A DNA stretch of 64,000 bases. It comes from Trypanosoma brucei. Lineage: Eukaryota. The position numbers were made by a program, and so were the translations under genes. Below, piece by piece: positions 17,543 to 45,440 of this stretch. The stretch lies in NCBI GenBank assembly GCA_000002445.1, contig CP000066.1, forward strand, positions 352,001-416,000, given 5' to 3'. The notes under the pieces are model-generated. The model was not told where the DNA came from, made no database searches, and saw only the letters and a list, made by a program, of their open reading frames with translations. Within the stretch, counting starts at the first letter, position 1, and each line of letters opens with the position of its first letter.

Positions 17543-17859
17543 TACCGCCGAGCGACTCCACAAACTATGTGCACCCTGCGTTCCCCGTGACATAACCTGA
17601 AACATTTTTGTCAAGCTATTCTCCTCATCAACATGTTCTCCGCGTTCCCACAACATCTGCGCACTTTAAACAGTTTTGGACGGAACGGTTACAACACGTG
17701 TCCCGCCTCGCTGCCTTCGGTTACCATGTGGAGATGCCATCATGTAAACTGTTGGGAGGTGACGAAGTTGTCCCTGCAACGGGCACTCTTAATTGTATCA
17801 TTTGCCCCTTTCACAATTATGTCAGTCAATCACTTCCTTAATGAGTTCTTGTGTGCGCA

Positions 17860-17886
17860 TGTGTGTGTGTGTGTGTGTGTGTGTGT
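17860..17886. repeat. (GT)n microsatellite (mirror copy as (CA)n at 49505-49534)
   Basis: Read directly in the sequence. Confidence 0.95.
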
Positions 17887-18123
17887 CTTTCCATCATTTC
17901 TTCTTTTGGGCGATTGATTGCATGTGATGTATCGCGACGCTTGTAGCGGCCAATGTTTCCATTGCGTCAAGCGCCAGCGTATGTGTGTCCCACCCACCTT
18001 TTCCTAATTTCTCTGTGAGTTGGAAGTGTTTAAGTAAGTAATCGTAAGCCATTTACTTTCTTCAAACACAACAAGTGGTACTGAAGGTGTGAAACTTACC
18101 ACAAGTACGAAGACACTGATTAG

Positions 18124-19329: not shown

Positions 19330-20818
19330 GCCACGAGGGTATCGTTGTTTTGTGCTTGAGGTTGAGATTAAAAACTCATCATTGAACGTTCTAACGGGTG
19401 TCGATCCTCGACTTGGGTGTAGTTTGCGATGTGTCCGGTGTGCCCCAAAGGGCGAGTGTGTAAAGTCACTTCATCATTTTGTTAATCTGTTGCTGTCCCC
19501 ATTTGTATGATCCGCACTTCCATGTGGTTGGCGGAGTTTCCCTAGCGCAGAAAGCGCTTAATTGAGTACCTCGTCTTTTCCTAAACCTTTGAAAAGGGGG
19601 AAATTGTGACCATATACGGAAAGCATACATTTAAAAGAAGGTGGAAAATGCGTCTTTCGGTCGAAAAGGAAAGTGTTGGGGGGCGAAGGTATGTTATTGT
19701 TCAGTGGAAGACCCTTCATCCTACCGGCGGGCTCACAAGTGATCGGCACCACCGCTACCACAAATGAAACCACTGATGACTATAACGTTTCACTCTTGTC
19801 GTACGAAATGTCTTGACGAAACTTATACTTCGTTTGATTCTGAATTATTTATTCCTTCCTTCACACCCTATCATTCGTCGCCCCTTATTTACTCTTTCCG
19901 TTGGAACAATGATGTGAATCTATCTGTGCAAATGACACCTCTAGTCTGAAACACAACATGACGCGAGCACAAATACAAGTTATCCCTGGCTGAGTAATCC
20001 AACTCCATTCTCTGTCCCTTCCCTAAGCAATTCATATCGAGTTCTCTACTGAGAGAATTCGCATATATTTTTTTTATTTCCCATGTAACAAGGTGTCTGA
20101 CGCCTTATTATATGCTGCTCAAGGCTGGTGTTACTCGTGAGTTTGCTCCCCGACGGCAACTTAAATTTTACCATAACACTTACGGAACTGTGTCTGTTGG
20201 TTGTTGACAGTGCCGAAGTTCAGTGCTCTTCCCTGATGAGTGTGAAGGTAAATGTCGCTACTTTCCCTCCGGTTGCTGAAACGGAGGTGCCAACGGGACT
20301 TGAGAGTGTGTTTAGATGGTTTCTTCCTTCAGTGGTGGGATACACTGCAGAGAAACTTGCAAAAAAATTTAACAGTATCTAAAACAATTTCATGACAAAG
20401 TTGACAATAAACAACTTTACGCCCATCCTTTCCCCGCCCCTGCTGGTGTTGCACGCAATGTTGTCGTTGGAGGGCTTTATGTCTTTCTGTTACAGAAGAA
20501 TGTCTCGCAACTCCTTTTCTCCACACTTCCCTGCGTATTTAATCGGGAACTAAAAGGATCACGGGGTTGCAGTAAGAGAAGACGTCGTTTCCATAAAGTT
20601 TGGGTCGAGGCGAGAGCAGCAGCGACATGTGGAGACAGAGTTTAAACAAATAGCACCAAATTATTAATTCTTCACTAAAGTCTTTAAAGTTCACTTACAG
20701 GTTTATACAAAGTGAAGAAATATGGCACGAAATAAAAAGCCATTGGACCACCATCTAGACAAACGGATTACCTGTAGGTTTTTGGAGGGATATTAACGCG
20801 TTCCGTTTCCCGCTTTCG

Positions 20819-21349
20819 TTGCCGCACATAATATGCCGGAAAAAATCCATGTTGAGTTACCACCGGATGGTCTTCTTTGCATATTTTCTCTCTTTAATTT
20901 TTGAGTCTTCTCCTTCTCCTCCTCCAATCACAAGCCTTCGTCTTTTTGAAAGTGCATCTCAGTGTGTAGGCAAAATGAGTTATATAATTGGCCATGTAAT
21001 GAAAAAGACGGTTTTTGTGCTAGTGTTTGCGATTGTTGCGGCATCCAAAAGTGATGAAGATGATAATGATGATGATTTTCGAGTACCCACATGTGAGCAA
21101 TTACTCCCACGGTGGCGGGACGATTTGATGTGCTGTGCTGAGAAGGTACGGGATAAAAACACTTGGTGTTGTGTCAACAACGTGTCAAAAAGCATGTGGA
21201 CTGCTTTAGAGGAATGTGCCAAACAATCCCCGCGTGATTTTACCACATACCCGTGTAGTTGTCTGTCGCAACAAATGATAGAAGCAAATGGTTGGACTGA
21301 AGAAAAGGAAAGAAGCATTAAGAATGCGGAGGAACGGGAATCGCAATAA
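20819..21349 (+). CDS. small Cys-rich acidic secreted protein. The likely true start is at 20975 (MSYIIG) or 20999 (MKKTVFVLVFAIVAAS signal peptide), giving a mature protein of about 100 aa with a poly-Asp/Glu tract.
   Basis: Conserved ORF in both inverted-repeat arms (46622-47161 on -). Signal-peptide-like hydrophobic stretch, 10 Cys, a DEDDNDDD tract. An upstream (GA)n(TA)n microsatellite follows the usual intergenic pattern. Confidence 0.45.
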   Translation: MPHIICRKKSMLSYHRMVFFAYFLSLIFESSPSPPPITSLRLFESASQCVGKMSYIIGHVMKKTVFVLVFAIVAASKSDEDDNDDDFRVPTCEQLLPRWRDDLMCCAEKVRDKNTWCCVNNVSKSMWTALEECAKQSPRDFTTYPCSCLSQQMIEANGWTEEKERSIKNAEERESQ

Positions 21350-22531
21350 AACATCAAGTGAGCTGGCAGCTGAAGAGGAAATTGTGGATTGAAAAGCGGA
21401 ACAAGCAATAAAGGAAGTTAGCTCGGCAACCTAGTTAGGCACACGTTTGGGAGTAAGACCAACCTCATGAAAAGAATAATCCTTACAGTAAGCAAATGAG
21501 AAGATGAAACAGATACATCAGTATCAAAAAAGGAGAGTCTGTCCCCCCCTCCCTTTACATTTGGTGACACCACTTCTCTTTATTGCTTTTACTTCATTAC
21601 TTATTTTATTTTAAGGTTTATCCATTGTGGGTTGTTTCTAGTTGCTATTTCACGATTTGTTTCATGCCAAACATGTACATGTCCCTTCGATAAGAAACAA
21701 GGTTTTCGAGTTGCAATGTTCATGTTGTTGCATGTGTATAAAGTTGGGCACTATTCCCTTTTATCCGCATCCGCAACTTCATCACTGTTTTGTGCAAGGA
21801 GGGGAGGGGAGGTATTTTAGCAAATTCTTTTCAGAATAATGTGAAACATAATTGGGAAACGCAATAAAACAAGGTAATGATGGGACGATGTGATGTGATG
21901 TTTTTGTTGTTGTTTTTGTTATTCTCGATTGTAGTTGATACCGCTAATTTTTTTTAACTTTTCAATACGGGGATGCATACATTTGATCGCTTTGCCTCCT
22001 TGATGTTGTGTACCTCTTATGAAATTATGTGTAGCATATCCTCCATGGGCTTTAATTCTTTTGATAGTAGTTGGTTGTCCCCCATTTGTAAAGTGTTGTC
22101 CACAAGATTTCTCCACAATAGATTTTGATCTGCTTGAAAACACGTTTTTTTTTATATTATGGTACAATAATATGTCACTCTTACAAACGTCACCTACAAA
22201 CGCATTACCATTATTAGTTGTTGAATATGTTTGCCCATTAGGCGAAGTGCTGGAGGTGCAAATGATAGTGAATAAACGGATTGAATTTTTGCACATTTAT
22301 GCTGAAGTAGATTATATTATGCGTAAATGAGTGTGTTTGGTTATTGGTGATTCCCCTTGTGAGGGGAATGGAAAAATTACGCTTAAGTTACATGCGGTGC
22401 TGGTGGAAACTTTAGTTTCCGTAATAAAGGCCACCATCGGTAACTTGGCTTACTTTCTTCTTTGTATTATGAAATTGGTGTGTCTGTGCTTTTACTTTTG
22501 ATTTTTCGAAAAAGGACAAAAGAAATAAAGG

Positions 22532-23629
22532 ATGCGGATATATTTCTCATTTATTGTCGTATTGTTGACTGGGACAGTGGAAAGTTCAAAAGCAGGAAAG
22601 AAGGGTTCACAAATATTGAATGAAAACGAGTTTAAAACATTATGTGGATTTGTCAATCTGACGTTTGAAATACAGAAATTGGCGAGTGAAGGAAAGCCAA
22701 CACTTGGAGGATTGAAACCTGAAAGTGTTAACGAGTCCGTGAATACCATTTTGTACGGCAACAAAGGCAGCACCGAAATTGGTTTCGAAGGCGAAAACGA
22801 CAGGAAAGATTACTGCGGGGACAGGCAAAATCGAGCCCACAAATATGCGGGGAAAAGCTTAATAAAGGATATTTTGTGTCTATGTAAACCCCACAGAAGG
22901 CAGGGCCAAAACGGGGCTGGTGCAGAAGATCTGTGTTTTAGCGGTAACAAGTGGTACAAGGGCGGTGAGGTGTGGAGCAATAAAGAGCAAGCTAAGCAGC
23001 ATTGGGAGAAAATAAGGTTGCATTGTAACCAACTTCCGAAACGGGAGCAACATATACAAAATCAATTATACCACTTAAAGGAAAAAGTTCAAGCAGTACT
23101 GAGAACAGCGACAGAAAAGAAGGGAAGGGAATCAGATCAAAACATACGACTCGGGGGTCATCAGGCAACAGAAGTGAAGCAATGCTCAGCAACCACTGGA
23201 AAGGGTAATTCGGTGTGTTTGATGTATAACATCACTTCCGGCACACTCACCAACCATAGCATCCCCTGGTTAAAGCATCTTGAAGAACTTGCCGAGAAAA
23301 TACCGAATGATACACGAACCAATTTGGGCACGAGTGAAAACGACGTCGAAACCGTTCCAAATGGAGTTGGAGATGCCGCACCTTCAACGGACCGAAAGAT
23401 TAACGAAGGCATTCGCACTAATGATGATAATAACAATAATAATGATAATGATAATATTAATTACAAGCACAATGATGGTAATAACACTGAATATAATCTA
23501 GAAGATCCACTAATGAATGAAAGCGGAACTAATACATCCGCAGAACCACAAACACGACCACTTTGGTCAGTAAATGGGAACCCTAACCCTAACCCTTTAA
23601 AAATACTTCTTTTACTGCTCTTAAATTAA
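22532..23629 (+). CDS. surface protein A: 365-aa putative GPI-anchored, N-glycosylated secreted glycoprotein (N-terminal signal peptide, C-terminal LKILLLLLLN hydrophobic tail), left-arm copy
   Basis: Signal peptide MRIYFSFIVVLLTGTVES. About 8 NxS/T sequons. Conserved Cys including a DILCLCKP motif. Asn/Asp-rich low-complexity region (NDDNNNNNDNDN). Short hydrophobic C-terminus typical of a GPI addition signal. Distantly related to gene B (shared NxxEFKTLCG and LCLC motifs). Confidence 0.7.
   Translation: MRIYFSFIVVLLTGTVESSKAGKKGSQILNENEFKTLCGFVNLTFEIQKLASEGKPTLGGLKPESVNESVNTILYGNKGSTEIGFEGENDRKDYCGDRQNRAHKYAGKSLIKDILCLCKPHRRQGQNGAGAEDLCFSGNKWYKGGEVWSNKEQAKQHWEKIRLHCNQLPKREQHIQNQLYHLKEKVQAVLRTATEKKGRESDQNIRLGGHQATEVKQCSATTGKGNSVCLMYNITSGTLTNHSIPWLKHLEELAEKIPNDTRTNLGTSENDVETVPNGVGDAAPSTDRKINEGIRTNDDNNNNNDNDNINYKHNDGNNTEYNLEDPLMNESGTNTSAEPQTRPLWSVNGNPNPNPLKILLLLLLN
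23583..23599. repeat. short telomere-like repeat (CCCTAA)x2.5 inside the 3' end of gene A (mirror copy TTAGGG x2.5 at 44378-44394)
   Basis: aaccctaaccctaaccc read directly. It encodes the NPNPNP just before the GPI signal. Confidence 0.6.
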
Positions 23630-26600
23630 AAATATATGCATATAAATATTAAAACTATTATATTTATGATGAGATACATGGGTTTTTTTAATACCGTCGG
23701 AAAAATTAATCAAATGTTTCTGTTTCAATATGTGCTTCCCTTTGGATGGCATAAAATATAATGGGGGGTGTGCAAGGTGTAATGTAAACATTTTTAGTTT
23801 TCGCTGTGGTGGCAGATGCTTACATATATTAAAATGATTTTATCGTTTCAGTGCCTAAGCCGTTTCTGCTTTGATGTCGGTGAGTGCCGAGCGAATTCGC
23901 GGATGATGTGCTGTACGAGTGGGGGATTACGTAAATAATTGATTTTTCGACTTATGTAAAGAAACGTATTTCGACATGCTTAAGATATTTTAAGTTAGGG
24001 AAATGTATACCCTTAAATGCATGCGGAGAGCGGCGGCAGGTGCTGTCGTCCACATTTTCCACAACGCTGAATACGACAGTACAGGCGAAAAAATTGCGAC
24101 AACATTCGTGAAGTGGGGGACTTGTATGTAAAGGTCCGAGAATTAAAAAAGTGTGGGTAAGCTTATGCAGATTAGGTCCCGAGTCCCCGTGACTCCTTTT
24201 CTATCAAATCTAGTGCATGCTGCGAGGACACCTTTTTGAGGTACTCCGACGCTGCGTTTTTAACGTCATTAATATCATTTGGGAATTTGAGCAATGAGGT
24301 AAGCGGTTGAGTTAGTGGGTAAGAATATTGCTTACTGGTAAGTGTGTTCTTAGGTTCAACTTACCAAATCAGGTAGATGTTGCCGATGTGTATGCCGGAG
24401 GGAGGTGGAAATGCAAGAGAGGGAGCCACTTCATTATTACATTTTTCGCGGATATGCAAGACGGTCACCTGCAAAGAATTTTGCTACGCGACTGAAAACA
24501 GAGAAAACAGAGTGTGTATAGGCTGAAGTATCAAAAAGGGGAGGCAAGTTCCCAGGGGGTGTTCTAGTATAAATGGCCCGAAAATTGAGAAAAAAAAGAT
24601 CGGGTACTGATTATCCAGTTAATGGCCTAAGACTGCTTGTGGTTGAGGTGTCTGTGTTTTCCCTAATTCATTCTCCTCTGGAGATGCAAATAAATTCATG
24701 TTTGGTGGTGTACTATATGACCGAAAGTTGTGTTCTTTGAGAATAATAAGGCGGTTGTATGCGGCTTCGTTTATGAGGAGCCGTAACGATTTGGGGCGAC
24801 TCTCCGCGATGGAGCGATGAGGGAGTTCACCGCCACCCGAGGGGGTTTTGGTCGATTTTGGAGATTTTGTAACATTGGGGCAGGGGCGAGAGAGTACTGA
24901 GGATATGTTAAGTATCCTTTCTCATAATTTGACTTAAAAGCGAAGTCTTACGTGGGGAGGAACGAGAGGTTACGTTGAACTTGTGCGTGCTTCCAGTTAG
25001 TATTCTGCTGGCTGTGTGGATGCACAACTTGAACCTGACTTACTTTTACCATATGCGGGAGACGGCGTATTCATGTCGACGAAATGTGGTGGTATCTGGG
25101 TATTGATCATATTGCCCGTTTGGCGCATCTACGATAACAATAGTGATGAGAGAGGTGTGCTGATTGCGTACGATGGTGCAACGTTATTTCAGGGGCAGTA
25201 TCGAAGTTGTATAATTTCATGTGCAGGCGAGTAGGATTGCTGGGAAGGAGAGTTTGTGTATGGTGCGTGTGCGAGAGTAAGGGCTATACGGCACCATAGC
25301 GAACTAAAGTGACTGAACTTATTTTCTCATTTGGTGCAAGGTCGCAGCGCAAACCAGCCACGAGTGGCACTCCCATAATAGGCGGCTCGTCGATACGTCA
25401 TGTGTATACTTCCAGAAAAAGTGCTCGTGCGGAGTAAGCAAAAACGTCATGTATATGGTTAGTGTTCACACGTTGGGAGCACAGTGTTTTATACCGAGAA
25501 GATATGGGTAATATTGCATATACAGTGGGTTTTTTTTAGCAAAGTAAGGAGTAACTTAGCAAACGGGTTGTGTGAAATGGCGTCTTTTTTCGGTGATGCC
25601 ACAATCGTCTGTGATGGCGAGGGAGGGAGGGTTGACATCAACGTAACCAATGTGAGTGTCTTCTGGACTGATGTGAGGAGCAGTGGAGTTCTGCTATTTG
25701 GAAGGATAACGAATGACAGGTATATTAACGTTCACAGAGGTAGACTAGATGCCAGGCTGCTTCTATTTCTCGTTCCTTCCTCGTGGTGACCGCGCCGCCG
25801 TTCTGCCCACAAATATGCATTACGTGTAAGTGGTGGTAAAGAAAGGGGGGATTGTTTACCTATCCCTCATGAAAGGACGTGTTAAAGGCGAAATGGCTTC
25901 TCAAAAGTGCAGAGAATGTTTTCTAGGTGGAGCACCGTCTTTCTGAGAACCGCGAGCAAGGGCTCACCCAGTTTGGTCAAGTGTTGTCTGCTTCATTTTC
26001 TATGCTTTGGTGTACCTCGCCTTTACAGTTTGAGGTGAAAGGGGAACATAATTAACTTAACCGCCCCCGCTCATTTGCACTCTGACTTCCGCAGTATGTG
26101 TTGTTTCTGCGTGGGCGTAGAGGAGCTGTTAGGCGAGTGGTGCCTTCACATTACGGAGGGATGAAATAACGAATGACAGACTGCAGTTTGTTTTTAACGT
26201 AACATGCATCTTTCTTTAGGTAGCGGACGTTGAACCCGCAGAAAGTGTGTTATTGTGACGTTAGAGGAAGAGGCAAGTCAAAAGATAAGCGGATACTAAC
26301 TAAACACTTTCGAGGCCGCCTGCATGGATAAATGGATAAATCAAGAGAAACAACAGATAAAACACGAGAATTACCTTTTATCGCGCGTCGCTCCTGCAGT
26401 AGGACGACCTTCTTCAGAATTCCTGGGCACAACTGCTGTCAGTACGTCCAGCAGGCTAGCTCGGGAAGAAAACTTAACCATAGTCTTCAACATACGCGCA
26501 TAAGTTCCTTTTGATTAAACAACCGGGTGGGATGGTTTTCCATCGTTTCCAGTCTACCAAGGGCAAATAGAAAAGCGGCAGCACCGCATTCATAACGCGA

Positions 26601-31920: not shown

Positions 31921-34900
31921 GACCGGCATGATTGCTCGCCAGGTGGTGTAAGCAGTTGTGTGGCCGAAGCTGATCTTTACACATTTTTTTTGCGCGCGGC
32001 ACAGGGTCAAACACATGCTACCGGAAAGCAGGCTAGCCTATACCCACTCCCTTTCATAGACAGACAACTTTTTTTCTGGAACAAGTCCAGTTGCGCCATC
32101 ATTTTAAGCGTTGAACGTAGTGGCTGCCATCGTACGGGTGCGCGGGGCCGTAGGTGCACACACCTTTCGGCCACATATGTCTACTTCAATTGAGGCTATG
32201 ACGTTGCTTAACGCTAAGGTGAAATGACAACTCTACGTGAATAGGTGCTTTTATTTCAAACATGACCTAATAGTTACGAAATACATAACATTCTTTGATA
32301 ACACAGCGGATTATTCACCACCCAACCACTATCACCTTGTCTTCTCGTATTTTCTCTCGCCCTTTCATTCCAGCACACTTACGAACTGGTATTTTCCACG
32401 CTTCTTCTCATTTTTTTTGCATGCCCACACGGTCCTTAAAGTTCACAAATTTTAGTTTGTAACCCGCCTTCTAAATGATAGAAGTTGTTGTGACAAAAGC
32501 GTAAGAGGTCGCCGAATACACATATCAACGCAGACGAAGCCACGACAAAAAAATTAAAAGGCACGCATAAAGCGACATATGTTATCCATAAGTACTAACA
32601 CATTGGGTAACAACACCCCGAGGCATCGCATCTTCAACAAAAATGTAAAACAAATGATCATTAGCCACACTTTTACAGCGCCGAAATGTTATCTGCTTTT
32701 CTTGTAAACCCCAAACCTCCCAAACATATTTAAAAAAAATTTAGCACAATTCTGATTTGTAACTTTTTCTTACCTCCGCTAAACCTACCTCTTTTAGCAC
32801 CCATCGATTAAGTACCTAGCATCTCCCTATGTTTACTTTTTGTTTGACATCTTTTAGCTAGCGGTCGACTTCGCATTACTACTTCACCCACTGCGGCGTT
32901 AGGTCTGTTCGCGCTGGCAACAGTGATGCCCCCGGCACCTTCTGATTTAGTTGCATTGTTACGTGCCATGGTTTCAGCCGACGCATACCTTTAAACCTTG
33001 CTGTTTGGATTTCTGTGTGCCGCATCGGAGGGAGGCAGCGCTTCCTTTTCTACATCGTCGGGCCTAAACAACTTTACCAAGAAAATTTCCACATCTACGC
33101 GAAGCCGTTAACCTCTTTTCTCTGGTCTAATCAAGCCACATTATCCACTTAGTGCTCAGGGGCTATTCATTGTAGTAAGTGTGTGGGAGTTTCCACTCAC
33201 CCTACTCTTAGAGCGTCACAGCAGCCCTCTATTTTGTGCCCACGCCAGTGCTACAAGTTCTCGATGAGGGTACCTTGTTCCATACATTTTGTCGGGTGGT
33301 GCGTGCATTGGAGATTCTTTGGAACCGTTTTCAATGTCAGGAACGCTCCGCTTCTCAATCTCTTCCCATTCAATTTTTATCTGGGTGTTTGTTCCCATAA
33401 AGTAGAGTACCCCCCGCCACATCAATGCGCTCGGCTGCACCTTCAATAGAGTAATTGGCTCCGACGCCAAGACCACGTGGCCAGTGCCGTAAAGGTCTTC
33501 CGTTCGCCCGTAGGACCTGATTAAAGTTGAAAAGACGTCCAAATGCGTTGCGTTGGTGTGTGGAATAACGTGGCGACGAAAAGTGGTAACTTCAACAGAA
33601 GGTAGCGGCTTTCAGTGAAGGCTCTTTTTCCAAAGCGTCGTTGACACCTCACCCGCCAGTGAGGTAAGTGGCCGCTAATTTTACACCCATGGGGTTTCCT
33701 CAACTGGCAAAGCCCATTCTCTAAGGTTGAGCTTCCTGTGGCCTCGTCTGCTCGCAGGTGAAATTTATGCAGTTTTATTCTTCACTAACTGTTTGATTTT
33801 CCGCGTGGTGTAAAGTGGGCAACAAAAACGAGGGGGTATTATTGTAGGCATCAAGCAATCCTAAGGGTGTACTTCCTTCGGAGTGGACTCAAATTCTTTA
33901 CAACCAAGAGCCCTACCAATTAAAAAGAAGGTGCAAGCAAGAAACCTCACTGCGCGTACAAAAGTAAACAAAAGAGGTGAATAATAACGGCCGAATACTG
34001 TAAAAAAAAACTAATGCGGAACAGTTGTGTGTGTTGTGGTTTGATCAATGTTATTCGCAGCCTCGGGCTCCCACCAAAAAACTAAGACTTGTAGGAGAGT
34101 GGTGTGTGACAACCAAGCTTGGGTGTTCTTGCAGTCAGTCAGAAAGTGGTGGTTATTTTTCAATTATAACAATGAGCACTATAACTGTACTAAGGAACTT
34201 TAGAAAACAGACACGAAGAGTCTTGCCACTAGCAGTACCGTTGAGTTGGAGTCAAAGTTAAATTAGGAGCGGTTTCCAGTTCCCTGCAGACCACCAGAGT
34301 TAACACCAACCTCTTCTTCAGCATCTTTCAAAGTTCGCCACCGCTGGAGTGTCAGCAATTGCGCTTTAAATATCACCTCTCGACCATGTGGTGTTCTATG
34401 CGAGAAGTGATGTGGCTACCACAAACTTTGTGCCTTTTGTGTTCATTTCCATGGACCTCCCTAGAGTTCCATCAAGTAGCCCACCTGCATTCAATGTTTC
34501 ACTAACTGCATACTACAGTGGTGTACGCGGCATTCTAGCAACAGCCTTCCTCAGTCAGTCGTGTCTCACCTCGAGGTGTTTAATCTTGTGACGGCTACTT
34601 GGCGATGGTCTCTAAGTTCTTTGGCCGTAATGCACCTTATATTTGTGTCACTGACAGAATTCTCAAACCCACTATCTGTTGTGCGTTCCGCTAACCGCTG
34701 TAACGACCTATTGGCTTCTCCCACTTCCGCAGATGGGTCCTTCGTTTCTAGGAGATTGATTCGTAGCATCGTCTGCGTTCTTGTATGTCCTCCCTTCCTT
34801 TGCAAACACCCCCACCCTGTAACCCCCATACCCATCACCCTCATGTTCTTTTTGTTCACCTTACTCTCCTGTCCACCTATCTGTATCACCGGACTGTTGT

Positions 34901-36093
34901 TGTATCTCTACTCCAAAACATGCAACACTGTTCCACGTAACTTTCGCAATTTTCCTCACTACACAAATTTCCACGAACTCCTTAAACCTCCGAAAGCGAC
35001 GAATCGGCCCCACTTTGGTGATATCCCCCTCAACCTTGTCAAGTATCCCCCTGCTCTTCCCTTGTGATGCGGTTGTTGAAAACGACTAATACACACAAAA
35101 CTCCCAGTGTACTCCATCCTACCACAAAAAAAAAACATATAGTTGCATCCTCCATCGCCTGTTACCAACATTTGATTTCCGATTATTTTTTGTATGCGCA
35201 GCATAAAGTTCCTTAAATTACCCTCACACCATGATATTTATAGTGGTTAACAACAGTCTCTCTCCTATCGATAAAGGGGTGAACCAGCCGCTTTGCACAC
35301 ACTTTGTGCCCGGCTACATCTTTTTGTCTCTAAGGTGAGGGCATTTTCCCGTGAATTTATGATTTCACCGCATTTTTTTCCTCCAAATTTCTGCCAACTC
35401 TGTATTGAAACAACTGAACTCATTCTATCAAATATTCCGTTAATTCTTGAGCACATCAGCACACACTCTCGAAAACCCGGTGAATGCTGCGACAAAACCT
35501 CCATCGGAGCGATCACGCTTTAGACAGAAATGCAATTCCTGAGAACATTACCGATAAAACGTGTAACCATCCGCACTACATTCAACTCTACACTTTTCTG
35601 GGAGTCTTTACCACACACCTTTATCCCTTCTATTCACTTAAGGTGTTAAATCTAATTTACTCAATACCTATTTCAAGGGATTGTCAATTCCATCTTGTTA
35701 AAAAAGGGACAAACCAGCTTGGAAGGAGTTTTCCTTTCTATTCCGCATTCTTTCACTTCACGGGATACTGAGAGTATTGTTCAGTCAATATTATTGAAAA
35801 AAAAATGTCAACACACTGCTGTAGCAAAAAAAAAAAAGAAAGCATAACTTGAGTGATATTTGAATCACATCACGTCGCTTACTATATGAATTTCCCATTT
35901 ACATTTGCTATCCTCTAATTCACATCCCTCCCCTGCCTTGAATCCACTAGTGTTTACCTGTTGTTGACGTTACCATCGTTAAACGTCAGAAGAGCCTTTT
36001 TTGGAATCACGCCCGTGCTCATTCTGACGTTGCTTTCCTTTTCTCTTAGTTTCCCGTCTTACCTGATATTTGCCAATTCAAACCAGGTTTTAC

Positions 36094-37194
36094 TTAATTT
36101 TTGGCATTGCCAATTTTCCTGTTTGACTCTTCAAACTCTTTTTGTAGCTTTTCAATGGCATCTGCGAGCGTTCTCTTATCATTCTCGTAGTCTTTCAGAT
36201 CCCTCATTTCGTTGAAAACTTTTAACAACTCCCTCATCCACGGTATATTCTTAATATCTCTGTTCCTACCCCTAACCACGTAGCGCACACGGTGGCCAGG
36301 GGCTTCTTGGGGCAGAATCCAGAGCCGCCAGAAGCTGAACTTTCTCCTATCACCAAAGACATAGGTAGTTCCGGTACATCCATCAACACCGTGGTTAATC
36401 ATGTCGCGGAAGTCGTTTACTAGTTTGTTAAACCCTTCTTGTGGGCCTTCCATACTTGAGCACTGTTCTTTGAGAAAATACCACCTTTCCCCCGCGTCTT
36501 CATCTGGTCTCCACACCGCCCTATTATCTCCCCTAGCGCAACGACTACAGCAGAGCTGAGTTTCTCTTCCCAAATTCATACGAGGCGCGCACAAACACAA
36601 CAAATCCCTACTCAATGATACGGACGCTTTAAGCTTTTGTGAACGTGAGAGTTGCTGCTCACATACCTGTCTCCTGTCGGAACTGCGTGCTTTAATTTCT
36701 TGTGGTCGATATGGAACACCATACAGCGCGCGATTAATACCTTTTTCGAGATCACTTGCTTTCAAAACCCATCTCCGATTTTTGGTTATATTTTGGAATA
36801 TCTGCGCAACGGAAAGAACCTTTTTTCTAATCTCCACCACTTCACGTTCGGACAATCCTCCTACCGAAAGTAGGGTTGTATTTCCCCTAGTTGCCAATTC
36901 TTTTTTCGATTCATTCCAAAACACTTTGTGGAGTGCACAGTTTCTTTTCCCCGCGCCTTCGCAAGTTTTGTTCAAATCCCTGTCTCCACTCATTTCCAAA
37001 TACATTGCTCCAATTCGAGCCGCCCCTTTAGTGATTTCCTGTGCTTCTTTCATCTTTCCAAGTGCTGCTTCTGCCAAATTTATCATGCCACACAATGTCT
37101 TAAACTCATCCCCGTTAACTATCCGCCGATCACCCGAGACAGTTGCCGGGAATACCAGCGCAAGCAAAACAGTGCAAAGATTTATAGCGCGCAT
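36094..37194 (-). CDS. surface/secreted protein B, copy 1 (366 aa). Signal peptide present, no hydrophobic C-terminus, so it is secreted or partners with a GPI-anchored protein.
   Basis: Signal peptide MRAINLCTVLLALVFPATVSG, NGDEFKTLCG and DLLCLCAP motifs shared with gene A, several NxS/T sequons. On the - strand, consistent with the right-hand gene block. Confidence 0.7.
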   Translation of the reverse strand: MRAINLCTVLLALVFPATVSGDRRIVNGDEFKTLCGMINLAEAALGKMKEAQEITKGAARIGAMYLEMSGDRDLNKTCEGAGKRNCALHKVFWNESKKELATRGNTTLLSVGGLSEREVVEIRKKVLSVAQIFQNITKNRRWVLKASDLEKGINRALYGVPYRPQEIKARSSDRRQVCEQQLSRSQKLKASVSLSRDLLCLCAPRMNLGRETQLCCSRCARGDNRAVWRPDEDAGERWYFLKEQCSSMEGPQEGFNKLVNDFRDMINHGVDGCTGTTYVFGDRRKFSFWRLWILPQEAPGHRVRYVVRGRNRDIKNIPWMRELLKVFNEMRDLKDYENDKRTLADAIEKLQKEFEESNRKIGNAKN

Positions 37195-40100
37195 TCTCTC
37201 CCTTCACTTCAATCAACAACTTCACCTCTTAAAAATACACAAGAAGATCATATAAAAATGCGAATGCATACCCCACATGCACCTTTGAATAAGTTATAGG
37301 AGTTGATAGAAAGGTAAATATACTACAAGTCAAATACCAACATTTGATGGATGTGCTTCTAAAAGTAAAAAAAGACTTAAGTAGTGTTAGATGGCAGTTT
37401 ACAAAAGTGGAGGTAAGTGTCCTTGGTGCCAAATCGACGCATGCTCTGGCATTTCATTTGGACCTTGATTTCTGCTGTAGGGAGGTTGCATCACTTCCGT
37501 AAATCTTGGGCTTATCCACTGTAGAAATAACCTATGACACTTTATACTTCCGAAGAATTAACTTTTTTCATTGTTATTTTCTTTGAGGAACACAGAAAAT
37601 CTGTACGAAGGTGGTTTTGAGTTGGGCTTTTGTTTTCACCAGTTTCTTCTGCATTTCGCATCCACAAAGTTTTGCAGACTCTACTTTGGTTGCCTGTTAT
37701 TTCGTTTGCCTTAGTAGTTGCATTTTTTTCTTTCAGTTTTGGCATACATAAACAAACGCCGTTACTGGTGCCGTCGTAAATTAAGCAAAGGCGGTGCCGC
37801 AACGTAAATTTGCCCGAACATTGGCGAGTGCCCAGTTCTTCATCTCCTCTAAACGAGCGGGAAATCTCATTCTGACTTGACCTCTGCGGTTTGTGTTTCT
37901 CCAAAGGAACCGCTCATACATCTGACACATCTAAAAACGCAAGTTTCAATGCAACACCACTATGTTTTCGGCAGTCTCTGTCATTCAAAAATTATTATCC
38001 CCATAGCAACCATTCAATCTTCCAATTATTTTCCACAAACCCGACTGTGACATTAAGAATTATCGTGCGCTTTCCAGTTGAGATGACGTGCACATAGGAG
38101 AGACAAATTCAAAAGATAGAGTAAAAATGTTAAAGTTAAGTTTGCTAATAAAGCGATATCGTTTTTGAACCATCGGGTAGTCACATTTTTGATGGTTAGG
38201 TTAACAAAATGCTGTTTTTACAGGAAAACATCAGAGTTGTCCGTGACGTGTCTTAATCAGTTACGTCGCTGAATTCCAAGCTACTAAGAGCGGTCCCGCG
38301 TTAATTTTTCCAGATCTTAAACCGCTAAATGTATCATTTTCTAGTTAACCTCAAGTTCTGATGCATTTTCACGCAGGAGCCTGCACCCAAAATTGTAATT
38401 CGAGGCTACGTTACAAAACACCACCTAAAACGCACAATTACAACTCTTCATCTCCAGCACTTGGACGTGCGCATCGCACACAATGACCACCTGCCTTCTT
38501 TGAACTCAATCTGATGCAGAAAAAAAGCGCATCTCCCCTCTCCGACAGCGAAAAAAGCATGCATGCACCCACAATCGCCACGAAAATAGTTTCCCCTCTC
38601 ACCATAAAATCTTCCAATAATCCTTAATCTACCTAAAAAAATATAAGAACAGAGTAAGTGACCACGTATAGAATCATTCCCAATCAAACCGTTCACTACG
38701 AGCAAGACTATGTCATATGCCGATCACTTGATCCGCACATTTCATCAAGCTTGCCACGTACTGTCTTTATCCCATTAGCTACTAATCATCGGTTTTATTA
38801 CCTATTTCCCACCAATCCCGCACGTCCACCAATAAGAGCAATTTACATTTTACGCAGTACGCCAGTGCTCCTCGATTAAGTACCTAGCATCTCCCTATGT
38901 TTACTTTTTGTTTGACATCTTTTAGCTAGCGGTCGACTTCGCATTACTACTTCACCCACTGCGGCGTTAGGTCTGTTCGCGCTGGCAACAGTGATGCCCC
39001 CGGCACCTTCTGATTTAGTTGCATTGTTACGTGCCATGGTTTCAGCTGACGCATACCTTTAAACCTTGCTGTTTGGATTTCTGTGTGCCGCATCGGAGGG
39101 AGGCAGCGCTTCCTTTTCTACATCGTCGGGCCTAAACAACTTTACCAAGAAAATTTCCACATCTACGCGAAGCCGTTAACCTCTTTTCTCTGGTCTAATC
39201 AAGCCACATTATCCACTTAGTGCTCAGGGGCTATTCATTGTAGTAAGTGTGTGGGAGTTTCCACTCACCCTACTCTTAGAGCGTCACAGCAGCCCTCTAT
39301 TTTGTGCCCACGCCAGTGCTACAAGTTCTCGATGAGGGTACCTTGTTCCATACATTTTGTCGGGTGGTGCGTGCATTGGAGATTCTTTGGAACCGTTTTC
39401 AATGTCAGGAACGCTCCGCTTCTCAATCTCTTCCCATTCAATTTTTATCTGGGTGTTTGTTCCCATAAAGTAGAGTACCCCCCGCCACATCAATGCGCTC
39501 GGCTGCACCTTCAATAGAGTAATTGGCTCCGACGCCAAGACCACGTGGCCAGTGCCGTAAAGGTCTTCCGTTCGCCCGTAGGACCTGATTAAAGTTGAAA
39601 AGACGTCCAAATGCGTTGCGTTGGTGTGTGGAATAACGTGGCGACGAAAAGTGGTAACTTCAACAGAAGGTAGCGGCTTTCAGTGAAGGCTCTTTTTCCA
39701 AAGCGTCGTTGACACCTCACCCGCCAGTGAGGTAAGTGGCCGCTAATTTTACACCCATGGGGTTTCCTCAACTGGCAAAGCCCATTCTCTAAGGTTGAGC
39801 TTCCTGTGGCCTCGTCTGCTCGCAGGTGAAATTTATGCAGTTTTATTCTTCACTAACTGTTTGATTTTCCGCGTGGTGTAAAGTGGGCAACAAAAACGAG
39901 GGGGTATTATTGTAGGCATCAAGCAATCCTAAGGGTGTACTTCCTTCGGAGTGGACTCAAATTCTTTACAACCAAGAGCCCTACCAATTAAAAAGAAGGT
40001 GCAAGCAAGAAACCTCACTGCGCGTACAAAAGTAAACAAAAGAGGTGAATAATAACGGCCGAATACTGTAAAAAAAAACTAATGCGGAACAGTTGTGTGT

Positions 40101-42162
40101 GTTGTGGTTTGATCAATGTTATTCGCAGCCTCGGGCTCCCACCAAAAAACTAAGACTTGTAGGAGAGTGGTGTGTGACAACCAAGCTTGGGTGTTCTTGC
40201 AGTCAGTCAGAAAGTGGTGGTTATTTTTCAATTATAACAATGAGCACTATAACTGTACTAAGGAACTTTAGAAAACAGACACGAAGAGTCTTGCCACTAG
40301 CAGTACCGTTGAGTTGGAGTCAAAGTTAAATTAGGAGCGGTTTCCAGTTCCCTGCAGACCACCAGAGTTAACACCAACCTCTTCTTCAGCATCTTTCAAA
40401 GTTCGCCACCGCTGGAGTGTCAGCAATTGCGCTTTAAATATCACCTCTCGACCATGTGGTGTTCTATGCGAGAAGTGATGTGGCTACCACAAACTTTGTG
40501 CCTTTTGTGTTCATTTCCATGGACCTCCCTAGAGTTCCATCAAGTAGCCCACCTGCATTCAATGTTTCACTAACTGCATACTACAGTGGTGTACGCGGCA
40601 TTCTAGCAACAGCCTTCCTCAGTCAGTCGTGTCTCACCTCGAGGTGTTTAATCTTGTGACGGCTACTTGGCGATGGTCTCTAAGTTCTTTGGCCGTAATG
40701 CACCTTCCATTTGTGTCACTGACAGAATTCTCAAACCCACTATCTGTTGTGCGTTCCGCTAACCGCTGTAACGACCTATTGGCTTCTCCCACTTCCGCAG
40801 ATGGGTCCTTCGTTTCTAGGAGATTGATTCGTAGCATCGTCTGCGTTCTTGTATGTCCTCCCTTCCTTTGCAAACACCCCCACCCTGTAACCCCCATACC
40901 CATCACCCTCATGTTCTTTTTGTTCACCTTACTCTCCTGTCCACCTATCTGTATCACCGGACTGTTGTTGTATCTCTACTCCAAAACATGCAACACCGTT
41001 CCACGTAACTTTCGCAATTTTCCTCACTACACAAATTTCCACGAACTCCTTAAACCTCCGAAAGCGACGAATCGGCCCCACTTTGGTGATATCCCCCTCA
41101 ACCTTGTCAAGTATCCCCCTGCTCTTCCCTTGTGATGCGGTTGTTGAAAACGACTAATACACACAAAACTCCCAGTGTACTCCATCCTACCACAAAAAAA
41201 AACATATAGTTGCATCCTCCATCGCCTGTTACCAACATTTGATTTCCGATTATTTTTTGTATGCGCAGCATAAAGTTCCTTAAATTACCCTCACACCATG
41301 ATATTTATAGTGGTTAACAACAGTCTCTCTCCTATCGATAAAGGGGTGAACCAGCCGCTTTGCACACACTTTGTGCCCGGCTACATCTTTTTGTCTCTAA
41401 GGTGAGGGCATTTTCCCGTGAATTTATGATTTCACCGCATTTTTTTCCTCCAAATTTCTGCCAACTCTGTATTGAAACAACTGAACTCATTCTATCAAAT
41501 ATTCCGTTAATTCTTGAGCACATCAGCACACACTCTCGAAAACCCGGTGAATGCTGCGACAAAACCTCCATCGGAGCGATCACGCTTTAGACAGAAATGC
41601 AATTCCTGAGAACATTACCGATAAAACGTGTAACCATCCGCACTACATTCAACTCTACACTTTTCTGGGAGTCTTTACCACACACCTTTATCCCTTCTAT
41701 TCACTTAAGGTGTTAAATCTAATTTACTCAATACCTATTTCAAGGGATTGTCAATTCCATCTTGTTAAAAAAGGGACAAACCAGCTTGGAAGGAGTTTTC
41801 CTTTCTATTCCGCATTCTTTCACTTCACGGGATACTGAGAGTATTGTTCAGTCAATATTATTGAAAAAAAAATGTCAACACACTGCTGTAGCAAAAAAAA
41901 AAAAAAGAAAGCATAACTTGAGTGATATTTGAATCACATCACGTCGCTTACTATATGAATTTCCCATTTACATTTGCTATCCTCTAATTCACATCCCTCC
42001 CCTGCCTTGAATCCACTAGTGTTTACCTGTTGTTGACGTTACCATCGTTAAACGTCAGAAGAGCCTTTTTTGGAATCACGCCCGTGCTCATTCTGACGTT
42101 GCTTTCCTTTTCTCTTAGTTTCCCGTCTTACCTGATATTTGCCAATTCAAACCAGGTTTTAC

Positions 42163-43263
42163 TTAATTTTTGGCATTGCCAATTTTCCTGTTTGACTCTT
42201 CAAACTCTTTTTGTAGCTTTTCAATGGCATCTGCGAGCGTTCTCTTATCATTCTCGTAGTCTTTCAGATCCCTCATTTCGTTGAAAACTTTTAACAACTC
42301 CCTCATCCACGGTATATTCTTAATATCTCTGTTCCTACCCCTAACCACGTAGCGCACACGGTGACCTGCGAGACTGTGTGCCATGATCGGATAGCGCCAA
42401 AAGCTGAATCCAACCCCACCCCCCAAAGTATATGCCGTCCCTCTGCATTCATCTTCACCGCCGTACGTAGCCTTGCGAAAGTTGTCCACCAGTTTGTTAA
42501 ACCCTTCTTGTGGGCCTTCCATACTTGAGCACTGCTTTTTAAGGAAGTGCCATCTTCCAGTTGCATTCTTATTTGTTTCCCACATACCTTCATTTTGATT
42601 CCTAACACACTCTTTGCAGCAAAGATGGGCTTTCCATCCCAAATTCATACGAGGCGCGCACAAACACAACAAATCCCTACTCAATGATACGGACGCTTTA
42701 AGCTTTTGTGAACGTGAGAGTTGCTGCTCACATACCTGTCTCCTGTCGGAACTGCGTGCTTTAATTTCTTGTGGTCGATATGGAACACCATACAGCGCGC
42801 GATTAATACCTTTTTCGAGATCACTTGCTTTCAAAACCCATCTCCGATTTTTGGTTATATTTTGGAATATCTGCGCAACGGAAAGAACCTTTTTTCTAAT
42901 CTCCACCACTTCACGTTCGGACAATCCTCCTACCGAAAGTAGGGTTGTATTTCCCCTAGTTGCCAATTCTTTTTTCGATTCATTCCAAAACACTTTGTGG
43001 AGTGCACAGTTTCTTTTCCCCGCGCCTTCGCAAGTTTTGTTCAAATCCCTGTCTCCACTCATTTCCAAATACATTGCTCCAATTCGAGCCGCCCCTTTAG
43101 TGATTTCCTGTGCTTCTTTCATCTTTCCAAGTGCTGCTTCTGCCAAATTTATCATGCCACACAATGTCTTAAACTCATTCCCGTTAACCAGCCATTCCGA
43201 ACCCGAGACAGTTGCCGGGAATACCAGCGCAAGCAAAACAGTGCAAAGATTTATAGCGCGCAT
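42163..43263 (-). CDS. surface/secreted protein B, copy 2 (366 aa). Identical to copy 1 except for a ~90-aa mosaic patch and a 5-aa patch near the mature N-terminus.
   Basis: Same frame, length and termini as copy 1. The differences are confined to residues ~210-300 and ~22-27. Confidence 0.7.
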   Translation of the reverse strand: MRAINLCTVLLALVFPATVSGSEWLVNGNEFKTLCGMINLAEAALGKMKEAQEITKGAARIGAMYLEMSGDRDLNKTCEGAGKRNCALHKVFWNESKKELATRGNTTLLSVGGLSEREVVEIRKKVLSVAQIFQNITKNRRWVLKASDLEKGINRALYGVPYRPQEIKARSSDRRQVCEQQLSRSQKLKASVSLSRDLLCLCAPRMNLGWKAHLCCKECVRNQNEGMWETNKNATGRWHFLKKQCSSMEGPQEGFNKLVDNFRKATYGGEDECRGTAYTLGGGVGFSFWRYPIMAHSLAGHRVRYVVRGRNRDIKNIPWMRELLKVFNEMRDLKDYENDKRTLADAIEKLQKEFEESNRKIGNAKN

Positions 43264-44342
43264 TCTCTCCCTTCACTTCAATCAACAACTTCACCTCTTA
43301 AAAATACACAAGAAGATCATATAAAAATGCGAATGCATACCCCACATGCACCTTTGAATAAGTTATAGGAGTTGATAGAAAGGTAAATATACTACAAGTC
43401 AAATACCAACATTTGATGGATGTGCTTCTAAAAGTAAAAAAAGACTTAAGTAGTGTTAGATGGCAGTTTACAAAAGTGGAGGTAAGTGTCCTTGGTGCCA
43501 AATCGACGCATGCTCTGGCATTTCATTTGGACCTTGATTTCTGCTGTAGGGAGGTTGCATCACTTCCGTAAATCTTGGGCTTATCCACTGTAGAAATAAC
43601 CTATGACACTTTATACTTCCGAAGAATTAACTTTTGTTTGTTTTTTCCCTTTATGCTAGTTGTTCCAGCCATTGCTCGACGTCTTCTATAAACTGAAGTT
43701 TACAGTTGGTGGAGTCGAGTCATTAAAAGGTTATTGAGATGTAATAATACTCTGTAGCGTGAAGCATCATCATTGAATATGAAATGAACTTCCCCAACAA
43801 CATCGACCATCTGACGCAACGCCACACACTTCACTCGAGTGCACCCCTTCACCCTCCACTTACTATCATAACGGGCGCACAAAAACAAAGACTGCAACCA
43901 AAGCCTGTCAGAACCATGATTTACGAAAATCATAAAACAGAAACTTCCACGGATAAGTTAGCATACGGCATTTACGTCTGAGCCGTCTGCCTTCGAAACT
44001 GAATATCAGCTTCCGATCTCACACAAAAACTTGGCATAAGTTTCCTGTACCAGCAGGAGCCACACAAAAATATAACAAATGCACATAAACAAAACCTCCT
44101 TCCTCCCCCTCCAGCTTTTTATTATAAATCACAATCATGTTAATATATGTAAGTATCTGCCACCACAGCGAAAACTAAAAATGTTTACATTACACCTCGC
44201 ACACCCCCCATTATATTTTATGCCATCCAAAGGGAAGCACATATTGAAACAGAAACATTTGATTAATTTTTCCGACGGTATTAAAAAAACCCATGTATCT
44301 TATCATAAATATAATAGTTTTAATATTTATATGCATATATTT

Positions 44343-45440
44343 TTAATTTAAGAGCAGTAAAAGAAGTATTTTTAAAGGGTTAGGGTTAGGGTTCCCATTT
44401 ACTGACCAAAGTGGTCGTGTTTGTGGTTCTGCGGATGTATTAGTTCCGCTTTCATTCATTAGTGGATCTTCTAGATTATATTCAGTGTTATTACCATCAT
44501 TGTGCTTGTAATTAATATTATCATTATCATTATTATTGTTATTATCATCATTAGTGCGAATGCCTTCGTTAATCTTTCGGTCCGTTGAAGGTGCGGCATC
44601 TCCAACTCCATTTGGAACGGTTTCGACGTCGTTTTCACTCGTGCCCAAATTGGTTCGTGTATCATTCGGTATTTTCTCGGCAAGTTCTTCAAGATGCTTT
44701 AACCAGGGGATGCTATGGTTGGTGAGTGTGCCGGAAGTGATGTTATACATCAAACACACCGAATTACCCTTTCCAGTGGTTGCTGAGCATTGCTTCACTT
44801 CTGTTGCCTGATGACCCCCGAGTCGTATGTTTTGATCTGATTCCCTTCCCTTCTTTTCTGTCGCTGTTCTCAGTACTGCTTGAACTTTTTCCTTTAAGTG
44901 GTATAATTGATTTTGTATATGTTGCTCCCGTTTCGGAAGTTGGTTACAATGCAACCTTATTTTCTCCCAATGCTGCTTAGCTTGCTCTTTATTGCTCCAC
45001 ACCTCACCGCCCTTGTACCACTTGTTACCGCTAAAACACAGATCTTCTGCACCAGCCCCGTTTTGGCCCTGCCTTCTGTGGGGTTTACATAGACACAAAA
45101 TATCCTTTATTAAGCTTTTCCCCGCATATTTGTGGGCTCGATTTTGCCTGTCCCCGCAGTAATCTTTCCTGTCGTTTTCGCCTTCGAAACCAATTTCGGT
45201 GCTGCCTTTGTTGCCGTACAAAATGGTATTCACGGACTCGTTAACACTTTCAGGTTTCAATCCTCCAAGTGTTGGCTTTCCTTCACTCGCCAATTTCTGT
45301 ATTTCAAACGTCAGATTGACAAATCCACATAATGTTTTAAACTCGTTTTCATTCAATATTTGTGAACCCTTCTTTCCTGCTTTTGAACTTTCCACTGTCC
45401 CAGTCAACAATACGACAATAAATGAGAAATATATCCGCAT
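44343..45440 (-). CDS. surface protein A, right-arm copy. The 365-aa protein is 100% identical to 22532-23629.
   Basis: Identical translation in the ORF track. Confidence 0.7.
   Translation of the reverse strand: MRIYFSFIVVLLTGTVESSKAGKKGSQILNENEFKTLCGFVNLTFEIQKLASEGKPTLGGLKPESVNESVNTILYGNKGSTEIGFEGENDRKDYCGDRQNRAHKYAGKSLIKDILCLCKPHRRQGQNGAGAEDLCFSGNKWYKGGEVWSNKEQAKQHWEKIRLHCNQLPKREQHIQNQLYHLKEKVQAVLRTATEKKGRESDQNIRLGGHQATEVKQCSATTGKGNSVCLMYNITSGTLTNHSIPWLKHLEELAEKIPNDTRTNLGTSENDVETVPNGVGDAAPSTDRKINEGIRTNDDNNNNNDNDNINYKHNDGNNTEYNLEDPLMNESGTNTSAEPQTRPLWSVNGNPNPNPLKILLLLLLN

Follow-up and report, generated by a model that had tools for sequence, protein, structure and literature searches.

How do two tandem genes come to be almost identical over some 4.5 kb of sequence and, at the same time, to differ by 38–45% in a few short blocks of a single open reading frame (ORF)? 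The question is raised by a stretch of Trypanosoma brucei brucei TREU927 chromosome 3 of 64,000 nucleotides (nt) (NCBI GenBank assembly GCA_000002445.1, contig CP000066.1, positions 352,001 to 416,000 of the forward strand; hereafter, the window, in which all coordinates are counted from its first letter), where a pair of minus-strand genes, here termed gene B, lies in tandem. Copy 1 (36094–37194) and copy 2 (42163–43263) each encode 366 amino acids, and both ORFs match TREU927 proteins exactly (XP_843744.1/AAZ10185.1 and XP_843745.1/AAZ10186.1, respectively), which are encoded on a chromosome of 1,653,225 bp and annotated as 'variant surface glycoprotein (VSG)-related, putative' (VR). The copies differ at a main patch and at an N-terminal patch, both of which are of type 1 in copy 1 and of type 2 in copy 2. 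On balance, we favour an explanation in which a tandem VR pair has undergone concerted evolution, with the divergent blocks in the membrane-distal top lobe of the protein probably being three relicts of an older, diverged version.

Three divergent blocks in a pair of near-identical units

Self-BLAST and MAFFT alignments delimit two duplicated units on the minus strand, at 32804–37581 (unit 1; 4,778 nt) and 38872–43647 (unit 2), with a period of 6,068–6,069 nt. Unit 1 comprises 387 nt 5' of the ATG, gene B itself and 3.29 kb of non-coding DNA 3' of the gene. Between the units lies a spacer of 1,290 nt (37582–38871; unstranded) that is unique in the window. The original prediction, made from the sequence of the window alone, had described essentially identical units of 6068 bp; the period stands, but only 4,778 nt of it is duplicated, the other 1,290 nt being the spacer.

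The units differ at 121 alignment columns, and 114 of these fall inside three blocks of 127, 102 and 22 nt, that is, within 251 of the 4,778 nt (hypergeometric P ~1e-148); the seven remaining columns include several at the unit edge or in homopolymers. Block B (36295–36421 in copy 1, 42364–42490 in copy 2; minus strand, codons 258–300) differs at 58 of 127 nt, and block A (36466–36567 and 42535–42636, minus strand; codons 210–243) at 46 of 102 nt. They are separated by an island of 44 identical nt (36422–36465 and 42491–42534, minus strand; codons 244–258), and, together with it, they constitute the main patch (42364–42636, minus strand, in copy 2). The third block, the N-terminal patch, is found directly after the predicted signal peptide (37110–37131 and 43179–43200, minus strand; codons 22–29) and differs at 10 of 22 nt; the type 2 form carried by copy 2 is common to T. 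b. gambiense DAL972 and T. equiperdum OVI. The two divergent in-frame blocks split by a conserved island had been recognized at the outset, and the 43-nt island string quoted then is matched exactly at 36423–36465 and 42492–42534, within the full identical run of 44 nt. The second patch had also been noticed, although its position is the one given above and not 37120–37150.

Both reading frames are preserved without insertions or deletions, in keeping with the equal-length replacement that had been described. All 51 amino-acid differences lie within codons 22–29 and 210–299, and the 246 codons outside the patches show no difference between the copies. The N-terminal patch reads DRRI/D29 in copy 1 and SEWL/N29 in copy 2, whereas the main patch begins at residue 210, seven residues past an LCLC motif (residues 199–202). 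As expected from the first inspection, every cysteine is kept in both copies (C215, C216, C219, C245 and C273), and copy 2 alone has an NAT sequon (N233).

The fine structure of the patch bears on how it arose. The island is identical at ~15 synonymous positions, whereas the adjacent blocks differ at ~60% of such positions; it, too, therefore stems from recombination, and protein constraint does not account for it. Moreover, the 3' flanks of copies 1 and 2, compared over 2,956 nt, are separated by only three substitutions, and the 5' parts (977 nt) by none. Blocks that are 38–45% divergent beside 4.5 kb of DNA at ~0.1% divergence identify the whole as a mosaic derived by recombination or gene conversion, as had been proposed, and not by point mutation.

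Age and stability of the two versions

Over codons 210–300, the Nei–Gojobori method gives proportions of synonymous and non-synonymous differences (pS and pN) of 0.68 and 0.31, respectively, with a ratio of non-synonymous to synonymous rates (dN/dS) of ~0.23. Block A, with a pS of 0.92, is saturated, and block B has a dN/dS of 0.32. In the two main blocks, 21 of 34 and 23 of 40 third codon positions are different, and transitions outnumber transversions by 64 to 39 across the patch. The near-saturation of synonymous sites, together with this transition:transversion ratio, indicates an old homologous divergence, as opposed to error or recent mutation.

Both versions are found again, unchanged, in other strains. 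In T. equiperdum OVI, patch 1 and patch 2 each differ from their TREU927 counterparts at 0 of 273 nt. T. b. gambiense DAL972 carries version 1 of the main patch, with 3 of 273 nt different from TREU927 copy 1, which matches the ~1% divergence of the flanks, and both patches of the Lister 427 proteins VSG-1554 and 1125.1401 are of type 1; the few positions at which these proteins depart from TREU927 are outside the patch. The segment is, therefore, dimorphic, with two discrete and stable versions, rather than a site of ongoing change, and the term 'hypervariable', applied to it originally, is not appropriate. Furthermore, since both versions are reproduced exactly in an independent genome project (OVI), the differences between them are not sequencing errors.

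The spacer, complete with both junctions, is present in OVI (99.9%) and absent from the DAL972 locus, which consists of a single unit. Given that OVI possesses the spacer as well as both patch versions, the two-copy dimorphic arrangement predates the divergence of the TREU927 and OVI haplotypes. The DAL972 haplotype combines the type 2 N-terminal patch with the type 1 main patch, in an upstream context like that of copy 2 and a downstream context like that of copy 1; one unequal crossover between the two patches would yield exactly this combination, and so would assembly collapse. A 467-residue 'VSG-related' protein annotated in OVI (SCU64753.1; CZPT02000139.1, 2267–3682), in which patch 2 and patch 1 occur in series, was rejected as a scaffolding artefact across an 11-N gap of the collapsed tandem repeat. 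The OVI contig that is reached via the Rce1-like protein ends within the repeat.

Comparison of 2,956 nt of 3' flank between TREU927 copy 1, TREU927 copy 2, OVI and DAL972 revealed six sites at which the two TREU927 copies agree with one another and differ from a state shared by OVI and DAL972; three sites are private to one TREU927 copy, three to OVI and 21 to DAL972. Copies 1 and 2 differ by three substitutions, as against 11 between copy 1 and OVI, and 10 between copy 2 and OVI. Thus, the paralogues of TREU927 resemble one another more than either resembles the sequence of a strain in which the duplication already existed, the OVI sequence being taken from a collapsed scaffold. Because OVI is already dimorphic, the six shared sites imply that the TREU927 flanks were homogenized after the two versions had come into existence. 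With homogenization placed after dimorphism, it is more plausible that the patches are remnants spared by conversion than that they were newly imported.

Gene B is a class-B VSG N-terminal domain of the VR family

Both copies match the Pfam family VSG_B (PF13206) with E values of 1.6e-67 (copy 1) and 1.1e-62 (copy 2) and scores of 228.7 and 212.8 bits, respectively (gathering cut-off 25), and profile positions 1–352 of 352 are covered, which bears out the earlier assignment to a surface-protein family. Profile and fold both place the protein among the class-B VSG N-terminal domains, and its product is predicted to be such a domain, secreted or surface-associated. It is not a canonical VSG: alignment with the paralogue P0009, which has a C-terminal domain and a hydrophobic tail, shows that gene B lacks the C-terminal domain as well as a glycosylphosphatidylinositol (GPI) signal, the chain terminating at residue 366 with ...EESNRKIGNAKN. 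Nor does it occupy a subtelomeric or expression-site location. GC skew and ORF orientation reveal a convergent strand switch at ~32 kb, and the pair is found on its minus-strand side, with ESAG8-like leucine-rich-repeat genes on one side and another VR gene on the other, and housekeeping genes (AAA ATPase, CorA-like, Rce1-like, Rab3-GAP and kinase) flank the pair. A search with a single core motif found no match to the 70-bp repeat near the gene-B genes.

A divergent type-B VSG-like sequence, a position in a chromosome-internal strand-switch region and the VR annotation together make gene B a member of the VR family (Marcello and Barry, 2007, as cited in PMC2771046, PMC2854126 and PMC3605285). 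VR genes are described as chromosome-internal, typically in strand-switch regions, devoid of 70-bp repeats and poorly understood (PMC2771046, PMC3605285, PMC6988115). Copy 1 is most likely Tb927.3.1500 and copy 2 Tb927.3.1510, an assignment based on the order of accessions AAZ10182–AAZ10187 and on the VR genes listed in a microarray study as 'Tb927.3.1470-Tb927.3.1520', with both of these genes among them (PMC2771046).

The patches map to the membrane-distal top lobe

Both copies were modelled with AlphaFold2 from an alignment of 31 sequences, and the models have a predicted local distance difference test score of 81 (81.4 for copy 2) and predicted template modelling (TM) scores of 0.80–0.82. 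The modelled bundle consists of helices 28–68 and 116–158 and the C-terminal helix 333–365, with residues 159–317 in between. The top Foldseek matches are all class-B VSGs, namely, VSG11, VSG615, VSG3 and mVSG1954 (E = 7e-6 to 1e-4, albeit with TM scores of only 0.35–0.45), and a profile search matches mVSG1954 (8b3w) with an E value of 2.6e-57, whereas a single-sequence search of the PDB gave only chance matches. In class-B VSGs, it is the N-terminal sequence that forms the bottom lobe (PMC9956791); taken together with the helix topology, this assigns residues 159–317 to the top lobe. The main patch is predicted to supply ~90 of the ~160 residues of this membrane-distal lobe.

Secondary structure within the patch is alike in both models: helices at ~230–246 and 255–265 are followed by a β-hairpin at 266–281 and a low-confidence loop at 282–300. 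Residues 280–305 align with the mVSG1954 loop GAPAGSGATGCDG...C, which carries a consensus O-glycosylation serine, and the corresponding site in VSG3 bears a top-surface glycan. The models, in which exposure was deduced from topology and DSSP strings, thus agree with the proposal that the patch is on an exposed surface, placing it in the membrane-distal top lobe and including in it the loop aligned with the O-glycosylation loop of class-B VSGs. The N-terminal patch is positioned directly before helix 1, at the mature N-terminus. Isolated β-bridge residues at 25(-26) and 213(-214) in both models hint that it may touch the start of block A, such that the two would form one variable surface.

Origin and persistence of the mosaic

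In the mechanism that we favour, one copy would be rewritten time and again from the other by gene conversion or unequal exchange, over the full 4.8 kb of the unit and not just over its coding part, and three short, old, diverged segments (codons 22–29, 210–243 and 258–300) would have escaped. All three are membrane-distal, the first at the mature N-terminus and the others accounting for the top-lobe residues enumerated above. Their persistence could have come about by two routes. At ~45% nucleotide divergence, the segments may be too dissimilar to enter heteroduplex; alternatively, selection may favour two outward-facing surfaces, be they two antigenic types or two ligand specificities. Either or both could act. 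All three type 2 segments reside in one copy (copy 2), and, both in block A and at the N-terminus, the closest paralogues are more similar to type 1 (in block A, type 1 is 50% identical to the paralogue P0007 and type 2 38%); the sequences suggest one old divergent source, mostly overwritten since. The mixed DAL972 haplotype, with its type 2 N-terminal and type 1 main patch, fits such a source as well. A parallel case is provided by the neighbouring VR gene, which has a non-synonymous cluster of its own directly after the LCLC motif.

Several points weigh against this explanation. At 44 nt, the island falls short of what a homology-driven conversion tract of its own would need, and the explanation therefore requires patchy repair or more than one event. 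In block A, the similarity of patch 2 to patch 1 does not exceed that to other paralogues, which would also fit an import from elsewhere. The Lister 427 protein sets hold type 1 proteins only. The dN/dS of the patch (0.23–0.32) is below 1 and gives no direct signature of the diversifying selection that had been suggested, although synonymous saturation weakens the test and makes the estimate unreliable. Finally, the comparison between strains has its own constraints: the 6.4-kb OVI scaffold is a collapsed repeat with N gaps, providing one sequence per segment, the single copy of DAL972 may itself be an assembly collapse and sexual recombination in T. brucei renders tree-like reasoning across strains approximate.

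Selection could also be given the leading role. It is possible, although we hold it to be rather unlikely, that the top-lobe versions are ancient alternative cassettes, held by balancing or diversifying selection in a non-variant VSG-like pair despite its homogenization. The cassettes would then provide the pair with two antigenic faces or with two specificities of binding, in the manner proposed for variants of the transferrin receptor, and the GPI-tailed VR protein encoded next to the pair might anchor it in the membrane. In that case, VR proteins would act as receptors that interact with the host, and the patch would mark their functional site.

Doubtful, too, in our estimation is the scheme first put forward, whereby a gene with patch 1 was recently duplicated and short segmental conversions from a third VSG-B/VR donor then altered one copy, as a germ-line counterpart of mosaic VSG formation. 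It would accommodate the presence of patch 1 in every one of the four strains compared, as well as at the single-copy locus of DAL972, and also the equal length of the replacements and the retention of frame. Block A of patch 2 is as distant from patch 1 (38% amino-acid identity) as from other paralogues (35–38%), and the unique 1,290-nt spacer, foreign to the units, shows that a simple unequal crossover did not produce the duplication.

The donor itself was sought at several levels. When the full-length sequences of copies 1 and 2 were compared with 5.8 billion protein clusters, only the two gene-B clusters were recovered by each, even at E <= 10. A profile of both copies, run against 1.84 billion representatives, found 32 relatives, the nearest being a chromosome-11 VR protein (P0007; 41% identity) and Tb927.7.180 (P0008; 37%); none of the relatives from the profile search resembles patch 2 more than patch 1 does. 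A tblastn search of the window with the patches yielded no donor, the neighbouring VR gene being only ~22–27% identical. The predicted third donor, therefore, did not materialize: no protein like patch 2 or like the type 2 N-terminal segment occurs in the annotations of TREU927, DAL972, the Lister 427 VSGnome or T. equiperdum, nor in the window, whole genomes at the DNA level and pseudogenes lying outside the search. The T. brucei VSG archive consists mostly of pseudogenes, which are invisible to protein searches, and this leaves some room for a donor. There are, however, further difficulties. Three separate imports into one copy would be required, or else one long import followed by back-conversion, which amounts to the relict mechanism in another guise. 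OVI has both versions and yet the TREU927 copies share six derived flank substitutions, so that later homogenization would be needed in any case. Moreover, a donor that is 45% divergent offers almost no homology for recombination.

It is very improbable that the dimorphism is an artefact, whether of sequencing error or of the misassembly of heterozygous single-copy alleles as a tandem in the TREU927 reference. DAL972 has a single unit, there is one gene-B protein per Lister 427 data set and collapsed or expanded repeats are common in such assemblies (PMC2854126), but an independent project recovered exactly the same 104 in-frame differences, OVI has the spacer together with its two junctions and microarray probes detected Tb927.3.1500 and Tb927.3.1510 separately (PMC2771046). 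Least credible of all is divergence in place, by strong diversifying selection or a local mutational process acting on exposed loops after a recent duplication and without recombination: the exposed top-lobe position of the patch, the confinement of 51 of 51 amino-acid differences to the patches and the non-synonymous cluster at the same structural position in the neighbouring VR gene would all suit it, but it is effectively refuted by patch synonymous sites that are close to saturation (pS 0.68–0.92) beside a 4.5-kb flank at ~0.1%, and it is further contradicted by a dN/dS below 1, by the constancy of both versions between strains, with no ongoing rapid change, and by the sharp block edges with an identical island inside.

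Returning to the relict mechanism, its interest lies in what an ancient two-state segment within a homogenized pair would indicate. Such a segment points to the part of the protein most likely to meet the host, at the membrane-distal tip, and so the patch marks the probable functional surface of an uncharacterized surface protein and offers a concrete experimental target. In addition, the locus is a clean natural example in which to consider conversion tract structure and the heterology barrier in the core chromosomes of T. brucei.

Expression and surroundings of the pair

VR proteins are made in bloodstream forms and are surface-associated, although their function is uncharacterized (PMC4587319, PMC6988115); as a class, they are enriched in the bloodstream-form surface proteome (PMC4587319). 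Fold changes between cultured bloodstream and procyclic forms are 33.1 for Tb927.3.1500 and 12.5 for Tb927.3.1510, where the direction is inferred from a table footnote (PMC2771046). In the same study, the microarray signals of the two genes are ~ten-fold apart, at 13,722 for Tb927.3.1500 and 1,450 for Tb927.3.1510 (PMC2771046), despite the identical 3' non-coding DNA and the 387 nt of identical upstream DNA in both copies. The presence further upstream of the spacer in one case and of native DNA in the other, or else probe effects, might account for this gap.

We found no Rfam family, tRNA or tandem repeat that would explain the duplicated unit. The origin of the spacer was sought in the rest of the window, in the DAL972 locus and in the paralogue locus L003, none of which gave a match.

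Two inverted repeats, one of 3.0 kb (20818–23839 versus 47162–44133) and one of 1.0 kb (17687–18671 versus 49707–48721), both 99.5% identical, bracket the convergent strand-switch region, the asymmetric centre of which holds the leucine-rich-repeat genes and the gene-B pair. Each arm contains one VR gene and part of a CorA-like gene.

The neighbouring VR gene (44343–45440, minus strand; identical copy at 22532–23629, plus strand) itself has a two-state mini-patch right after a DILCLC motif, at 45055–45076 in the window (codons 122–129), which corresponds structurally to the point where block A of gene B begins. One version, HRRQGQNG, is found in TREU927 and in Lister 427 VSG-1559, and the other, HKKPGKDG, in both DAL972 copies and in Lister 427 VSG-1316 and 1125.1402; T. 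b. equiperdum IVM-t1 has KKAGKDG. Over its first 900 nt, the gene differs between TREU927 and DAL972 at 11 nucleotides; seven of these fall within the 22 nt of the mini-patch, and nearly all are non-synonymous. In TREU927 and some Lister 427 entries, the protein is of 365 residues and ends right after a GPI-signal-like LLLLLLN tail, and the DAL972 and IVM-t1 annotations run to 435–437 residues (L001, 7822–9129; L004, 10001–11314). There are also small length differences in Asn/Asp-rich and NPNP stretches.

Comparison with known systems

Within the VR family, gene B is an ordinary member, and nothing sets it apart. The transferrin receptor subunits ESAG6 and ESAG7 are likewise VSG-derived; their genes are conserved apart from short variable stretches at the tip that binds the ligand, and they have a type-A fold, form a partnership between a GPI-anchored and a GPI-less chain, are encoded in expression sites and exist in many variants. 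Gene B resembles them in being VSG-derived and non-variant, with variation in short membrane-distal stretches, and also in that a gene without a GPI signal adjoins a VR gene with a GPI-like tail, reminiscent of the ESAG6/ESAG7 pairing. It differs in fold: the Foldseek comparison with 6soy_B is not significant (E = 1.4, TM 0.17), and gene B does not adopt the type-A fold.

Mosaic VSG conversion is a somatic process that takes place during infection, in telomeric expression sites and with subtelomeric donors. As at gene B, short in-frame segments of the N-terminal domain are exchanged and chimeric surface proteins result; unlike it, the gene-B mosaic is inherited, chromosome-internal and stable across strains, with no donor found in annotated proteins or in the window. 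In the papers searched, we found no description of the dimorphic top-lobe patch of this pair.

The closest likeness is to the tandem arrays of T. brucei. Jackson (2007) described concerted evolution in such arrays and predicted that less conserved regions would escape conversion once they had diverged (PMC1855330). At gene B, as in the arrays of that study and of Jackson et al. (2010), paralogues within a genome are more alike than orthologues between strains (PMC1855330, PMC2854126), copy number varies between subspecies and divergent regions behave as predicted for those that escape conversion. The gene-B array does not appear in the tables consulted in these two papers (PMC1855330, PMC2854126). 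Compared with the arrays described, the escape at gene B is extreme, with ~45% divergence in the blocks as against ~0.1% in the flanks, and it concerns three small blocks of one lobe, with a converted island of 44 nt. Overall, we conclude that gene B exemplifies a known kind of evolution in a known family, with no new kind of mechanism, and that its pattern is a fairly ordinary one for the surface-gene families of parasites.

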